A DNA stretch of 6,029 nt, taken from positions 1 to 6,029 of IMG/VR virus record IMGVR_UViG_3300045988_004635; one strand, given 5' to 3'. The stretch's first letter is position 1. Every line of letters begins with the position of its first letter. This document shows positions 284-6,029 of this stretch, one piece after another. Source of the DNA: a virus. Made by a program: the position numbers and the translations under genes. The notes beneath the pieces were generated by a model, which saw only the letters and a program-made list of their open reading frames with translations, had not been told where the DNA came from and did no database searches.

Positions 284-326
284 CGCGCGTGCACGCGCGC
301 GCGAAGCGCGCACGCGCGCACGCGCG
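284..326. repeat. Alternating pyrimidine-purine CG-rich island with two tracts, 284-303 (20 nt) and 306-326 (21 nt). It contains a 16-bp perfect palindrome CGCGCGTGCACGCGCG (284-299), the 8-mer CACGCGCG three times (292-299, 311-318, 319-326) plus one inverted copy (284-291), and GCGAAGC at 301-307.
   Basis: Read directly from the sequence. The flanks are AT-rich, so the island stands out sharply. Confidence 0.9.
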
Positions 327-403
327 GCCTTTTCGGCGCTGTTGTTCGCAAGCTCACAAGCGCCGTATATTATATAACTTGTTGTAGCCGTAGTAGTAGA
401 GAC

Positions 404-412
404 TGTGGAAAA
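404..412 (-). promoter_or_regulatory. DnaA-box-like 9-mer TGTGGAAAA, the reverse complement of TTTTCCACA. It fits the relaxed consensus TTWTNCACA.
   Basis: Exact 9-mer, repeated at 541-549. Each copy is followed by a similar ..TG(T)TGAWAAC context. Confidence 0.35.
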
Positions 413-540
413 GTTGATAACAGTAAAAATTATCCGTTATCACGTTATTTTTAAGAGAAATCACTAGTTGAAAGTCTTGTTAAAAACTTGTTGAAATGTT
501 AAAAGTTAGTCAAAATGACGAAAATCGTTGTGCAACATTT

Positions 541-549
541 TGTGGAAAA
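541..549 (-). promoter_or_regulatory. Second DnaA-box-like 9-mer TGTGGAAAA, immediately upstream of the tandem iterons.
   Basis: Identical to 404-412 and fits TTWTNCACA on the - strand. Confidence 0.35.
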
Positions 550-550
550 C

Positions 551-577
551 CTGTTGAAACTGTTGAAACTGTTGAAA
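551..577. repeat. Three perfect tandem copies of the 9-bp unit CTGTTGAAA (551-559, 560-568, 569-577). This is an iteron-like array.
   Basis: Read directly. Degenerate copies lie upstream: TAGTTGAAA 465-473, TTGTTAAAA 477-485, TTGTTGAAA 488-496. CTGTTG also occurs at 339-344. Confidence 0.9.
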
Positions 578-718
578 ACGCGCAAGCGCGCAAGGAGTGG
601 ATTTAGCCGAGCTCCGCGTTCGCTGCGCACGGCAAGGCGCTAAAGCGCCATTCAAAACAAAGGAACAAAACCAGATTACAAGAGAAGGTTACAAATATAT
701 TACAAAACAACAAAACTA

Positions 719-2509: not shown

Positions 2510-4215
2510 ACAGAAACAACGAAAGACGCTTTCTGAATGTGCCACAGATGCACACAAGCAGAACGCGTTTTAACCGTGACCAGACGATTTTAACCACGTT
2601 TGACAGCGGCAAACTTATCCCGTTTTTCGTAGATGAAGTGTTGCCGGGCGACACTTTCCAAATCGACACAAGCGCGATCATCCGAATGACCACGCCTAAG
2701 TATCCGGTCATGGATGATGCGTTCATAGACTTCTACTACTTCTATTGTCCAAACAGAATCCTGTGGGATGACTTCAAATACTTCATGGGAGAAGTAGAGG
2801 ACAAGCCATGGGCACCGACCAAAGATTACAGAGTACCGGAACTAGCATGCATTGGAAGTGAAAAAAACCCAGTGCCATACGAAAGAAGCATTCTAGACTA
2901 TATGGGAGTGCCAACAAAAATCAAAAAAGAATTCAGAATAAACGCGCTGCCGGTACGAGCCTATGTAAAAATCTGGAATGAATACTTCAGAGATGAAAAC
3001 GTAGAAAACAGAGCAGTGCTAGTAACAGCTGGACAAGATGAAGCATACCAGGATTCATACAGTGCAGCATACCCAACTCCAGGCACAAAAGAAAATCTGG
3101 ACGATACGCTTAAAAAAGCATACACCGGTGGACGATGCTTGCCAGTAAACAAGTTCCATGACTACTTCACAAGCTGTTTACCTTATCCGCAGAGAGGGCC
3201 GGAAGTAACATTACCGTTAGGTGGTAACGCACCGGTTGGATTGTATAAAGACACAGCGCTAACACAGTTTGGAACGGTAGGAGGACACGCGGGAATTTAT
3301 TTGAACCAGACGCTAAGCGGAAGCGCACTTGCACCAAATATCGGTAACAGCCAAAACGAAAACTACAAAGGATATGCGCTAGTAGCAGGCAGTTCAGACC
3401 CGACAAATCAAGTAAACGACACGGCCTATTTAGGTGCAGATCTGACAAGGGTAACCGCAGCAACAATCAACGACTTGCGAAATGCTGTTGCAGTGCAGCA
3501 GTACTACGAAGCCCTGGCGCGCGGTGGCAGCAGGTATCGCGAACAGATACAGGCACTATGGAACGTCACAATCAGCGACAAAACGGTACAGATTCCCGAA
3601 TATTTGGGCGGTGGACGCTATCACATCAACATGAATCAGATTGTTCAGACGAGCAGCCAGCAAAACGAAACAGATACACCCATCGGCGAAACTGGCGCAA
3701 TGTCAGTAACACCGGTAAATGAAAGCAGTTTCACAAAATCGTTCGAGGAGCACGGCTTTGTAATCGGTGTAATGTGTGTTCGTCATAATCACAGCTACCA
3801 GCAGGGACTTGAGCGTTTCTGGAGCAGAAGAGACAGACTAGACTACTATGTACCACAGTTTGCAAACCTTGGCGAGCAGCCTGTAAAGAAAAAGGAAATC
3901 ATGCTGACCGGTAACAAGTCAGACGAAGAAACATTCGGCTATCAGGAAGCATGGGCAGAATACCGGATGAAACCAAACCGTGTAAGCGGGCTTATGAGAA
4001 GCAACGCAACAGGATCTCTGGACTTCTGGCACTATGCAGACAACTATTCAACCGTGCCGACACTGTCGCAAGGCTGGATGGTAGAAGGAAAGGACGAAAT
4101 CGCAAGAACGCTCATCGTTCAAGACGAACCGCAGTTCTTCGGAGCAATCCGCGTAGCAAACAAAACTACCCGTTGTATGCCGCTGTACAGCGTACCGGGG
4201 CTGTACAAACTGTAA
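2506..4215 (+). CDS. VP1: Major capsid protein VP1 (Microviridae F-type jelly-roll), 569 aa.
   Basis: Hallmark motifs: TTFDSGKLIPFFVDEVLPGDTF, YFYCPNRILWD, RAYVKIWNEYFRD, TINDLRNAVAVQQYYEALARGGSRY, GFVIGVMCVR. The GTG start at 2506 is 7 nt after AAGGAGG (2492-2498) and overlaps the VP3 stop as GTGA. Confidence 0.97.
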   Translation: MNRNNERRFLNVPQMHTSRTRFNRDQTILTTFDSGKLIPFFVDEVLPGDTFQIDTSAIIRMTTPKYPVMDDAFIDFYYFYCPNRILWDDFKYFMGEVEDKPWAPTKDYRVPELACIGSEKNPVPYERSILDYMGVPTKIKKEFRINALPVRAYVKIWNEYFRDENVENRAVLVTAGQDEAYQDSYSAAYPTPGTKENLDDTLKKAYTGGRCLPVNKFHDYFTSCLPYPQRGPEVTLPLGGNAPVGLYKDTALTQFGTVGGHAGIYLNQTLSGSALAPNIGNSQNENYKGYALVAGSSDPTNQVNDTAYLGADLTRVTAATINDLRNAVAVQQYYEALARGGSRYREQIQALWNVTISDKTVQIPEYLGGGRYHINMNQIVQTSSQQNETDTPIGETGAMSVTPVNESSFTKSFEEHGFVIGVMCVRHNHSYQQGLERFWSRRDRLDYYVPQFANLGEQPVKKKEIMLTGNKSDEETFGYQEAWAEYRMKPNRVSGLMRSNATGSLDFWHYADNYSTVPTLSQGWMVEGKDEIARTLIVQDEPQFFGAIRVANKTTRCMPLYSVPGLYKL

Positions 4216-4254: not shown

Positions 4255-5130
4255 ATGGCAGCCTTATCAACATTCTTAACCGCACTCAACATAGCGGGAA
4301 ACGTTGCAAACACGGTTGGAACATTCGCAAATGCTGGAAAACAAATCGCAGGAGCATTTGGAGGATGGGGGCAAACAGGCAACAGCCAAAGCAGCGGAGG
4401 AAGCACACAGCAAGGCGGTGGACACTCTGAAAGCGGAAGTCAATCAGGAACAAACGTGCAGCAGGTTGATGACTGGCTTAAACAGGCATATGCATACCAA
4501 GGACAAGAAAGCGCCATGCAGGGCAAATACAACAGCCAAAGTATGTTAAAACAGATGGGATACAACACCTTACAAGCAATTATGCAGGGCGTATACAATC
4601 ACATCGAAAATAGCGTAGCCATGAACTACAACAGTGCAGAAGCACTAGCAAACAGAGAATGGCAAGAACATATGTCAAACACGGCATATCAGAGAGCCGT
4701 AGAGGACATGAAAAAAGCAGGGATTAACCCAATACTTGCATTTGCAAACGGAGGAGCAAGCACACCGGGAGGAAGTGCAGGAACAATCAGCGGAACAAGT
4801 ATGGGGCTGGCAAGCAGCAGCGCACTTGGAGTAAGTCGAAGCGGAGGATTTGTACCAAACGCATACGAAAGCTCTAGTTGGTCACAAAGTGACTGGTTTA
4901 ATGCCGCGCAAAGCTGGCAACAGATGCTCAGCACAACACAAATGACACCTTACGGACTACAGAAAGCCTTAACCGAAATCGGAGACGACACCGGAAAAGC
5001 AATCCAAAAGAGCGTAAAGACCAATACAAAAATCCAAGGAAACACACACGGAAACAGACAAACCGAAATGAGACAAGACAAAACTGGAAGCTATGGTGAA
5101 AAAAGAAAGCCGGGTGACTATTTAAGGTGA
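4255..5130 (+). CDS. VP2: Minor capsid / DNA pilot protein VP2, 291 aa.
   Basis: Hydrophobic N-terminus and Gly/Ser/Gln-rich linkers. It has the conserved core REWQEHMSNTAYQRAVEDMKKAGINPILAF, characteristic of microvirus VP2. It lies directly after VP1. Confidence 0.9.
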   Translation: MAALSTFLTALNIAGNVANTVGTFANAGKQIAGAFGGWGQTGNSQSSGGSTQQGGGHSESGSQSGTNVQQVDDWLKQAYAYQGQESAMQGKYNSQSMLKQMGYNTLQAIMQGVYNHIENSVAMNYNSAEALANREWQEHMSNTAYQRAVEDMKKAGINPILAFANGGASTPGGSAGTISGTSMGLASSSALGVSRSGGFVPNAYESSSWSQSDWFNAAQSWQQMLSTTQMTPYGLQKALTEIGDDTGKAIQKSVKTNTKIQGNTHGNRQTEMRQDKTGSYGEKRKPGDYLR

Positions 5131-6029
5131 GTTGTTACAAGCCATTAATAAGGCTGTACAATCCCGAAAACAAAGAAATAAGCGGGCGGGTGTATTCACT
5201 CGCCCGTTTTTCAGAAATATCGGGAAAACAGCTAAAATATGAAGATTTAATGTACAGAAAAGATGTAATGTTGATACCATGCGGGCAATGCATCGGATGT
5301 AGAATCAGACAACGCGAGGACTGGACAACACGCATAGAGTTAGAAGCAAGAGATTATCCAAGGGAAGAAGTATGGTTTATTACACTAACCTATGATGATG
5401 ATCACGTACCGGGTATGATAATCGAGACAGGCGAAATCATGCGAAAAGTGCAATACGTCTGGAAACCGAATAAGAAGCGTCCTGAAAGCGTCCAAACGTT
5501 GCTATATACTGACGTTCAAAAATTCTTAAAACGTCTCAGAAAGGCTTACAGGGGCAAATTACGCTATTTTGTAGCGGGAGAATACGGAGAGCAGACAGCA
5601 AGACCGCATTACCACATGATACTATACGGATGGCAACCGACAGACCTAGAAAATCTATACAAGATACACCACAACGGATACTATACTAGTAAATGGTTAG
5701 CAGACCTATGGGGCATGGGTCAGATACAGATAGCACAAGCAGTACCAGAAACATATAGATATGTTGCAGGGTATGTAACCAAAAAAATGTATGAAATAGA
5801 CGGAAAGAAAGGAAATGAATATTATGAACTAGGGCAGCAAAAACCGTTCGCTTGTATGAGCCTTAAACCAGGTCTAGGAGATAACTATTACAAAAAACAC
5901 AAGGCCGAAATCTGGAAGCAAGGCTACATCCAATGTACAAACGGAAAGCACGCACAGATACCACGCTATTACGAAAAGATGATGGAAGCTGAAAACCCAC
6001 AAAGGTTGTGGAGAATTAAGCAGAACAGA
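5127..6029 (+). CDS. VP4: Replication initiation protein VP4 (HUH rolling-circle endonuclease), N-terminal 301 codons. It is open at the window edge and completed by 1..172.
   Basis: No stop codon from 5118 to 6029 in this frame (translated by hand). N-terminus is (M)SCYKPLIRLYNP. Other motifs: CGQCIGCR; motif I FITLTY (5376-5393); HUH motif RPHYHMILYG (HYH at 5607-5615); two-tyrosine motif YVAGYVTKK (5760-5786), compare phiX174 A protein YVAKYVNK. The GTG start at 5127 overlaps the VP2 stop as GTGA. An in-frame TGA at 5115-5117 bounds the frame upstream. Confidence 0.93.
   Translation, partial: MSCYKPLIRLYNPENKEISGRVYSLARFSEISGKQLKYEDLMYRKDVMLIPCGQCIGCRIRQREDWTTRIELEARDYPREEVWFITLTYDDDHVPGMIIETGEIMRKVQYVWKPNKKRPESVQTLLYTDVQKFLKRLRKAYRGKLRYFVAGEYGEQTARPHYHMILYGWQPTDLENLYKIHHNGYYTSKWLADLWGMGQIQIAQAVPETYRYVAGYVTKKMYEIDGKKGNEYYELGQQKPFACMSLKPGLGDNYYKKHKAEIWKQGYIQCTNGKHAQIPRYYEKMMEAENPQRLWRIKQNR
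5183..5211 (+). terminator. Intrinsic-terminator-like hairpin inside the rep coding sequence: a 10-bp stem (one G-T/G-U wobble), loop TATT, then TTTTT.
   Basis: CGGGCGGGTG (5183-5192) pairs with CACTCGCCCG (5197-5206). T-run is at 5207-5211. It lies 57-85 nt downstream of the rep start and the VP2 stop. Confidence 0.6.
5975..6029. repeat. Right copy of the 55-nt terminal direct repeat, identical to 1-55.
   Basis: Same comparison as for 1-55. Confidence 0.95.

Follow-up and report, generated by a model that had tools for sequence, protein, structure and literature searches.

The window, i.e., the whole 6,029-nt stretch of DNA that was analysed, represents one complete genome, circular and 5,974 nt long, the last 55 nt of the window duplicating its first 55. 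All genes lie on one strand (+) and encode a major capsid protein (Phage_F match, E = 7e-139), a VP4-type replication initiator (5250–6029, continuing over the circular junction to a stop at 172; Pfam REP_ORF2-G2P, E = 2e-18), a Chp2-type scaffold, ORF5 and an M15 peptidase. The window is a gut gokushovirus (microvirus), related to human, pig and monkey gut gokushoviruses (72–86% identity). Its Shine-Dalgarno sites are strong and it has an extended −10 promoter, which suggests a Firmicute-like host.

The CG island considered here (284–326, − strand) lies in the single long non-coding region (173–775, ~600 nt), between a conserved hairpin just past the VP4 stop codon (181–224, − strand) and an invertible AT-rich module. 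The spacer that separates hairpin and island (234–283, no strand assigned) measures 34–236 nt among relatives and includes a second, degenerate copy of the hairpin loop motif (CTATCAAATA, 262–271). Downstream of the island, a ~38-nt lineage-specific insertion with small GC hairpins (327–364, no strand) reaches to the AT-rich block; it is missing from basal relatives, where the distance from the island to ACTTGTTG is 6–13 nt. The conserved module itself (365–578, + strand) consists of the AT-rich block, TATATTATATAACTTGTTGTAG..GTAGTAGTAG in the window and TATTATATAACTTGTTGTAG..GTAGTAGTAG after the island in relatives, and of about eight TGTTGAAA-type repeats. This AT-block/repeat module of ~212 nt is common to many gokushoviruses in either orientation relative to the genes, and where it has the usual orientation the gap between island and AT block is 6–13 nt, or ~49 or 78 nt with small-hairpin insertions. 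A second GC-rich cluster of small hairpins (577–650, no strand; CGCGCAAGCGCG, GGCGCTAAAGCGCC) forms the right border of the module, and positions 576–592 are similar to the repeat unit of the CG island. The region ends with a predicted sigma-70-type promoter with extended −10 (719–747, + strand; TAGAAA-17-TGATATAAT, from a consensus scan and direct reading), followed by a ribosome-binding site and the ATG at 777. An Rfam search of the whole window (E <= 1) returned no match in the non-coding region, the sole sub-threshold hit being Termite-leu at 5177–5262.

The hairpin at 181–224 has a perfect 13-bp stem and reads, on the − strand, TAGCCCAGTACC / TTACTTGATAG / GTACTGGGCTA, then GGTGACACC, its loop carrying a phiX174-like nick motif, ACTTG^ATA, on the non-coding strand. 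It is ~90% identical even in distant microviruses, with stems that covary and a loop that is retained, and the same architecture (TAG-stem / ..TACTTGAT.. / stem-CTA / GGTGAC) is found on the coding strand of Chp2, SpV4 and 26 other diverse IMG/VR microviruses of 4–6 kb. The viral-strand origin of phiX174 (rep_origin annotated at position 4306; CAACTTG^ATATTAATAAC) has the ACTTGAT(A) core in common with it; unlike the phiX174 origin, the motif of this clade sits in a hairpin loop, is intergenic and lies on the strand opposite the genes. We consider this hairpin the best candidate for the Rep nick site, i.e., the rolling-circle origin. Read on the + strand, it precedes a T-run in most relatives and could also terminate the VP4 mRNA.

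Sequence, conservation and losses of the CG island

An earlier note on this DNA had drawn attention to the island for its letters, and the description was accurate: two tracts of alternating pyrimidines and purines (284–303, 20 nt, and 306–326, 21 nt) separated by AA, a perfect palindrome at 284–299 (CGCGCGTGCACGCGCG), the repeat CACGCGCG at 292, 311 and 319 with its inverse CGCGCGTG at 284, and a single GCGAAGC in the genome, at 301–307, that matches the Hirao mini-hairpin rule exactly. Since the longest alternating run in 300 first-order Markov simulations of the genome averaged 13.1 nt and never exceeded 22, one run of 21 nt is already rare and an adjacent pair far rarer. Read as a hairpin (arms 284–303 and 307–326, loop 304–306), the island forms 20 uninterrupted pairs on the − strand (G-C, A-T and G·T), while the arms on the + strand are 90% complementary, with two A·C mismatches (293·317 and 298·312). 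It is the most stable 60-nt stretch of the genome on either strand, the fold energies (+ strand −28.5, − strand −33.0 kcal/mol) lying ~8–9 SD from the genome mean of −4.5 +/- 3.3.

Relatives were collected with anchors outside the island, so that alternation itself played no part in the choice of genomes. The motif of the neighbouring hairpin retrieved 119 IMG/VR contigs, 114 of them clade members, of which 108 carry the island. Although the genomes differ by 12–23%, an equivalent two-part CG/CA island, sought from an unrelated flanking motif, is present in about 109/115 clade genomes, a count of related sequences, many of them from one metagenome (3300045988), and not of independent events. 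An island of ~43–45 nt also stands at the same place in 14/14 GenBank relatives, which come from independent studies. Relatives that have over 90% of the window's length in common with it reach only 77–87% identity. The strand of the island is constant, always downstream of the hairpin, and its orientation to the nick-motif hairpin is fixed in 109/109 genomes. A second sample, anchored on the AT-block motif, had the island in 38 of 72 genomes and lacked it in the other 34, and it is absent from other microviruses with the same origin-like hairpin. We found no earlier description of such a CG island in the searchable literature.

Within the clade, the sequence of the island drifts under constraint, by hardly anything but transitions. 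In flank-anchored comparisons of 31 subfamily relatives the arms show 12 transition and 3 transversion alleles against 127 and 151 in the flanks (Fisher p = 0.014), with 0.37 minor alleles per column in the island against 0.89. Arms that are less variable and poor in transversions, while their sequence drifts, argue for purifying selection on something other than the exact sequence. The island is thus real, conserved and under selection, as the earlier note had supposed from its contrast with the AT-rich flanks. It is also dispensable. A clean deletion of ~120 nt (window about 234–356) removes it from two genomes that are 86–89% identical to the window (L063 and L086), two others lack it (L060, L061) and one carries a truncated form (L074), so that what had been proposed as a prime candidate for a priming or packaging signal is not an essential one; because the island is missing from close relatives and from the 34 genomes of the AT-block sample, any role must be auxiliary or redundant. 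An apparent 3-kb insertion at the island in L057 was set aside, as its portal-like and other dsDNA-phage or bacterial ORFs look like a chimeric assembly.

The heptamer GCGAAGC (301–307, + strand), which the earlier note had pointed out, is a lineage-specific form of the loop region: in its exact form it is confined to the sub-lineage of the window, and the centres of other lineages read GAAAC, GATAGC, GTAGC, GTAGAC or AAAAGY, or have no break at all. The mini-hairpin rule is GCGNAGC/GCGNNAGC (PMC13037366); roughly a third of the genomes have a centre that fits it (GCGAAGC, GCGATAGC, GCGGTAGC or GCGTAGC, as read from the listed centres), and the heptamer of the folding (−) strand, GCTTCGC, falls outside it. 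As the alleles read, the GCGAAGC motif is incidental and not the conserved, selected feature. A link of the motif to the phiX174 origin, mentioned in the earlier note, finds no support in Hirao's 2026 review, which lists the complementary-strand origins of G4, St-1 and alpha3, RSF1010 ssiA and N4 promoters and leaves phiX174 unmentioned (PMC13037366). The + strand of the window carries a motif of the mini-hairpin type, GCGAAGC, as the G4-type origins do.

Pairing and strand asymmetry

The two strands of the island differ as folds. Shuffling the same 76 nt with dinucleotides kept gives folds as good as that of the + strand (z = −1.3), and so does permuting its pyrimidine-purine steps (z about 0), whereas the − strand (dG −33.0) reaches z = −3.1 and was matched by 2 of 200 shuffles; values of z < −2.5 for purine-starting islands are an artefact of a null model that mixed RY and YR units. 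A verdict of no selected hairpin, drawn from the + strand shuffles, was superseded by a strand-aware analysis of pairing, in which 79 distinct islands were set in the central register to give 1,619 opposed positions. Read on the coding strand, C-G stands at 1,142 of these, T-A at 137, A·C at 313, T·G at 17 and other combinations at 10, and since a coding-strand A·C is G·T (or G·U) on the complement, 98.3% of positions pair on the − strand. T stands opposite A 137 times, where 1000 permutations give 49 +/- 5 and at most 69; its count opposite G is 17, where 106 +/- 5 would be expected. An alignment of 22 sequences gives 99.5% paired cells on the − strand and 83.4% on the + strand, with compensatory changes at three pairs (1:44 CG<->TA, 7:38 TA<->CG and 10:35 GC<->AT) and a further eleven pairs that vary solely between G-C and G·T. 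The − strand hairpin is the more stable one in 78 of the 79 islands (DNA parameters, −23.8 versus −18.4 kcal/mol, p = 1e-14).

The excess of CA steps has a simple source: they are four times as frequent as TG steps, where a perfect hairpin would need 1:1, because the genome is A-rich at neutral sites. This leaves unexplained why T·G, a mild mismatch on the coding strand, is avoided, and A·C, a severe one there, is accepted. After normalisation to 4-fold sites (a hand calculation) T·G is still ~6 times more depleted than A·C, and thus mutation bias alone is insufficient to explain the asymmetry. The asymmetry of the mismatches leads us to conclude that selection acts on a hairpin formed while the non-coding strand is single: the island is specified by its structure, on the strand complementary to the genes. 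The proposal of a hairpin in single-stranded DNA therefore stands as regards the selected feature, given the T·A excess and the compensatory pairs; the strand that had been folded was the wrong one.

The same sequences belong to the class that forms Z-DNA, the two runs of the window measuring 20 and 21 nt, and alternation extending unbroken over 38–45 nt in three relatives (L004, L009, L031). Tracts of d(CG)n and d(CA)n flip to Z-DNA in negatively supercoiled plasmids, and the island, with more than 40 bp of CpG-rich, alternating purine-pyrimidine sequence, is of the same kind. Accordingly, one could imagine the island at work in the duplex replicative form: as Z-DNA or as a cruciform, next to the AT-rich module, it would take up negative supercoiling or signal it. 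The strict alternation, the purging of transversions and the very AT-rich tract adjoining the island suit this idea, and so does the order of its steps, CG >> CA/TG > TA, which is the order of Z-DNA propensity. Both structures, however, are strand-symmetric and do not predict the 18:1 ratio of A·C to T·G, nor that T should need A opposite while A needs no T; Z-DNA has no use for a central non-alternating break, which 72 of the 79 distinct islands possess and keep centred, and predicts no compensatory changes. Strand asymmetry, centring on a loop and base-pair covariation, all seen in the constraint on the island, are not properties of Z-DNA, and given above all the strand asymmetry we regard Z-DNA, which the earlier note had put forward, and non-B-DNA in general, as quite unlikely to be the selected feature.

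A repeat of this kind might also have no function and simply be slippage-prone, GC-rich and homogenised by slippage or gene conversion, marking a hot spot of rearrangement. Deletions, duplications, single-unit forms and insertions do occur naturally at the site, island-like sequence borders the inversion of the neighbouring module on both sides, and CA exceeds TG by the same factor (4.0) as A exceeds T at 4-fold sites. Against this, C-G pairs make up 71% of the opposed positions where ~17% would be expected from 4-fold frequencies, T·G lies 6-fold below the permutation null, and transversions and minor alleles are both reduced in comparison with the flanks, which makes an absence of function improbable in our view. 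Recombination sites were also considered. Enterobacterial gokushovirus prophages carry a 28-bp dif-like motif, the prophage copies being flanked by host dif (PMC7062461), and in the literature dif motifs are described only in other gokushovirus clades. A dif/Xer identity for the island was rejected: the adjacent conserved block, compared with 185,579 species genomes, gave no prophage junction, and the matches were one free 5.7-kb phage contig and one chance match in a coding region. The sequence TATATTATATAACTT is only weakly like a XerD arm.

One subfamily consists of perfect direct repeats of 22–23 nt whose halves share substitutions (L012, L025, L102, L112), and the number of units varies from one (L088, L184, each with one half only) to four (L208). 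Together with a direct identity of the halves that exceeds the inverted one in 37 of 68 non-tied islands, this would fit tandem, iteron-like sites recognised by a DNA-binding protein of phage or host. Between subfamilies, however, only alternation and GC content are conserved and not sequence, no candidate binding protein was identified, and the direct repeats also serve as arms of the − strand hairpin, 98% of positions pairing in every subfamily. Such pairing follows from the fact that any (YG)n tract pairs with any other on the − strand, and it therefore holds in the direct-repeat subfamily too. As protein sites in a duplex are strand-symmetric, they would not predict the asymmetry of mismatches, and we consider iteron-like binding sites very improbable.

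Polarity of the virion strand and a possible role in priming

A hairpin selected on one single strand could be borne by RNA or by virion DNA. In the former case it would act in an antisense RNA, a leftward non-coding-strand transcript starting at or near the island, in which the 20-bp, G·U-tolerant stem might stabilise the 5' end, be a target of RNase III or have a regulatory function. An asymmetry that leaves G·U pairs valid is a classic signature of RNA structure, the − strand is again the more stable with RNA parameters (−39.1 versus −27.8 kcal/mol), and wobbles and A-T pairs are about equally tolerated, which suits RNA (G·U) somewhat better than DNA. Moreover, the − strand of the AT block contains ..CAACAAGTTATATAAT.., resembling the + strand promoter TTGACAAGTGATATAAT, and a terminator-like hairpin followed by a T-run is read on the − strand at 179–163. 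A consensus scan, however, found no − strand promoter, the candidate −10 having no −35 element; genomes with an inverted module (L008, L017, L038, L070, L113) keep the island though this −10 then points away from it; no Rfam family matches the region; and an RNA would leave both the mirror-image composition (see below) and the orientation of the nick motif unexplained. We consider an antisense RNA unlikely.

Other identities of the region were tried and rejected. The island was unflagged on either strand by a terminator scan and is not followed by a T-run on the − strand, so that it is no Rho-independent terminator; on the + strand it is followed by GGCCTTTTC in the window's own lineage only. 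A single-stranded promoter mimic, in which 368–382 would pair with 734–748, is not conserved in the inverted-module genomes. Three further likenesses were given no weight: − strand CTACTACTACG(A/G)C resembles the pMV158 nick site TACTACGAC, CTA triplets resemble Firmicute primase start sites, and TGTGGAAAA is DnaA-box-like.

That the single-stranded species is virion DNA rather than RNA is suggested by the orientation of the nick-motif hairpin together with the composition of 4-fold sites. In the clade these sites are A-rich on the coding strand (A 0.50, T 0.12), and when the window's profile is complemented, its values (T.50, A.15, C.20, G.16) come close to those found in phiX174 (T.52, A.12, C.20, G.16). 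In ssDNA phages, C->T change in the single strand is known to produce an abundance of NNT codons (PMC3278643), with which the T-rich 4-fold sites of phiX174 and of the following genomes agree. Chp2 has T.51 and A.24 at its 4-fold sites, SpV4 is likewise T-rich, and the 26 microviruses with the hairpin on the coding strand have a mean T minus A of +0.33; L382, which alone among the other genomes has the hairpin on the non-coding strand, is T-poor as well (A.33, T.13). The skew is independent of the orientation of the neighbouring iteron module. The rule that links composition to polarity is weakened by phiMH2K, which has an A-rich coding strand and yet carries the ACTTGTTG-loop hairpin on that strand. 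Taken together, it is a serious possibility, though one that we hold tentatively, that the rolling-circle origin of this clade is inverted with respect to the genes, that the antisense strand is packaged, making these the first "negative-sense" Microviridae, and that the island is a single-strand origin (sso) particular to the clade.

For an element that is conserved, selected for pairing, strand-specific, fixed in position and dispensable, our best explanation, which we favour while holding it short of probable, is a strand-specific, sso-like structure on a virion strand antisense to the genes; both the packaged strand and the role in priming are what we infer. In the proposed sequence of events the non-coding strand would be displaced by rolling-circle replication and then packaged. 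On the − strand the island lies 34–236 nt 5' of the ACTTG^ATA hairpin, i.e., upstream of the presumed nick on the strand presumed to be displaced, and would not be exposed as single strand until a round of replication ends. There, the hairpin of ~20 bp, made up of C-G pairs, with G·T wobbles allowed, and closed by a loop of 1–6 nt, would stand on the strand complementary to the genes as a duplex landmark resistant to SSB, and it may help the host priming machinery (RNA polymerase, primase or a PriA primosome) to start complementary-strand synthesis. The earlier proposal of a complementary-strand origin thus survives, as the best reading, in the form of an accessory role in complementary-strand synthesis, and on the opposite strand.

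Few ssDNA phages of the gut are as abundant as gokushoviruses, of which almost none are cultured, and to our knowledge their cis-acting replication signals are undescribed. The present analysis provides a clade-wide, structure-defined non-coding element with a clear strand of action, and a candidate hairpin for the viral-strand origin (..TACTTGAT.. loop, then GGTGAC) that is common to very distant microviruses. The orientation of this hairpin and the A/T skew at 4-fold sites offer a sequence test for the packaged strand. If antisense packaging is true, hundreds of gut phages would be an exception to the textbook positive-sense Microviridae, and strand-aware methods of virome library construction must allow for antisense virions. 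The island and its natural deletion variants are a ready system for the study of ssDNA phage priming in Firmicute-type hosts.

Comparison with known priming structures

The minus-strand origin of filamentous phages and Frpo of the F plasmid are ssDNA hairpins that mimic promoters and are read by RNA polymerase. As proposed here for the island, they recruit a host enzyme that makes the primer for the complementary strand; their hairpins, however, imitate −35 and −10 boxes, whereas the island is without promoter-like sequence.

G4, St-1 and alpha3 start their complementary strands at hairpins that depend on primase and contain a mini-hairpin, GCGAAAGC or GCGTTAGC. These origins are stable structures that resist SSB and lie between genes in the ssDNA genome of a microvirus (PMC13037366), and the island, likewise stable and intergenic, would be of the same nature. 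The G4 signal differs in lying on the coding (virion) strand and in having three hairpins and a defined CTG start, while in the island the mini-hairpin motif is unconserved and on the non-selected strand, and no primase start site can be assigned.

The ssoA subtype of single-strand origins carries an RS_B site and the CS-6 loop motif TAGCGT/A. Neither this signature (RS_B, CS-6 TAGCGT) nor a G4-type start site could be assigned in the island; some lineages have TAGCGC or TAGACG at the centre of the + strand, i.e., on the strand that does not fold, and these are unconserved and absent from the window. Known sso elements measure 130–340 nt, with several imperfect stem-loops and conserved RS_B and CS-6 motifs, whereas the island is a single hairpin of 43 nt, nearly all CG, with no motif match. 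In rolling-circle replicons, sso promote the conversion of ssDNA to dsDNA and lower the accumulation of ssDNA. The sso of rolling-circle plasmids and ICEs (ssoA, ssoT, ssoU and ssoW; sso1 of ICEBs1) are active only as ssDNA, and they usually lie just upstream of the nick site, where they are exposed last (PMC4595007), a position like the one proposed for the island. They are orientation-specific, defined by structure, usually upstream of the double-strand origin (dso) and non-essential (PMC4595007). In the island, pairing is confined to the − strand at a fixed orientation, and 79 distinct sequences share one fold, so that structure prevails over primary sequence. By this comparison the island, which would also lie upstream of the nick if the nick site and the displaced strand are those proposed here, agrees with sso in its fixed orientation, its drifting sequence and its natural deletions.

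An invertible module to the right of the island

To the right of the alternating CG/CA island lies an AT-rich module of about 212 nt that contains ACTTGTTGTAG and TGTTGAAA-type repeats (window 365-578). It is 72-86% conserved among many gokushoviruses, and it can point either way with respect to the genes, the island and the origin-like hairpin. Orientation variants were found in the compared genomes L008, L017, L038, L070 and L113, and, of 72 genomes from L138-L211 analysed by anchoring on the AT block, in 27. Island-like quasi-palindromes flank the module on both sides (284-326 and 576-592), and the module is an invertible or recombining cassette.

The arms of a 15-nt inverted repeat, TATTATATAACTTGT at 368-382 and ACAAGTGATATAATA at 734-748, are 93% complementary (the similarity reaches about 19/23 nt), and its right arm coincides with the -10 region of the main promoter; the repeat may serve as a divergent second promoter or provide long-range ssDNA pairing. 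A free 5.7-kb genome of the clade (the window's relatives among gut gokushoviruses), L136 (CAVKUS010000079.1), is binned with a metagenome-assembled genome of 'Bacteroides sp. CAG:545', but the strong Shine-Dalgarno sites and sigma-A-like promoters of the phage point rather to a Firmicute as the candidate host.

Stem-loops, insertions and alternating tracts

Two further hairpins lie at gene ends. The first is small (GACACTTTAACAGTGTC, 163-179), spans the VP4 stop codon, continues on the - strand into CCTCTCTTTTT and was flagged as terminator-like. The second, a GC hairpin with a T-run directly after VP2, is overlapped by a sub-threshold match to the Rfam Termite-leu RNA at 5177-5262 (27.3 bits, where the gathering score is 51; E = 0.009), and this match is probably just a terminator.

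Small GC-rich, hairpin-forming insertions that differ by lineage have accumulated on either side of the island, in the stretch that runs from the origin-like hairpin to the AT block; the window carries one at 327-364, while those of other genomes measure about 75 nt (L002, L005, L007 and L013) or about 100 nt (L004, L012 and L038). It is as if the spacer between the origin-like hairpin and the AT block tolerated or collected stable stem-loops. At the expected site of the island, L057 (IMGVR_UViG_3300045988_086966, 8,781 nt) has a segment of ~3 kb with portal-like and Mu-F-like ORFs and one kinase-like ORF, and is most likely a chimeric assembly broken at the repeat.

Alternating CG/CA tracts of 20-99 nt are also present in many viral contigs that are unrelated to the window and for the most part GC-rich (L212-L293, e.g., L223, L234, L251, L254, L269 and L276). 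Longer inverted repeats often abut these tracts exactly on both sides, or the tracts are located near contig ends; phage genomes may thus contain a broader class of such hairpin-apex or repeat elements.

The origin-like hairpin and the packaged strand

The origin-like hairpin (181-224, - strand) combines a loop (..yTACTTGAT..), a stem (TAG...CTA) and a following GGTGAyACC, and its core is the phiX174 nick site. Very distant Microviridae keep it, with covarying stems, and it is located at about 2925-2965 in Chp2 and about 1636-1665 in SpV4; gokushovirus-like phages probably use it generally as their viral-strand origin. Genomes from the range L298-L407 harbor it as well. Between this hairpin and the island, the hairpin-loop motif CTATCAAGTA recurs once in degenerate form, as CTATCAAATA at 262-271, inside a short direct repeat that reads CAGTCTAT..CAGTCTAT in relatives.

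In the window's clade the origin-like hairpin lies on the strand opposite the genes, and the sign of the A/T skew tracks its orientation: 26 genomes that carry the hairpin on the coding strand are rich in T, and the clade, together with the compared genome L382, is A-rich at 4-fold degenerate sites (coding strand A.50, T.12, G.21, C.17 for the whole window and clade genomes L015-L211). phiMH2K has a hairpin (GTTCGGCTAC/GGACCCTACTTGTTGTAA/GTAGCCGAAC, 3290-3345) on its coding strand, and the loop of this hairpin has ACTTGTTGTA in common with the + strand AT block of the window. The phiMH2K coding strand is rich in A and contains very little G, with a G frequency of.07 at 4-fold sites. The match between skew sign and hairpin orientation suggests that the clade packages the antisense strand, as does its 4-fold-site profile, which is the mirror image of those of phiX174, Chp2 and SpV4.
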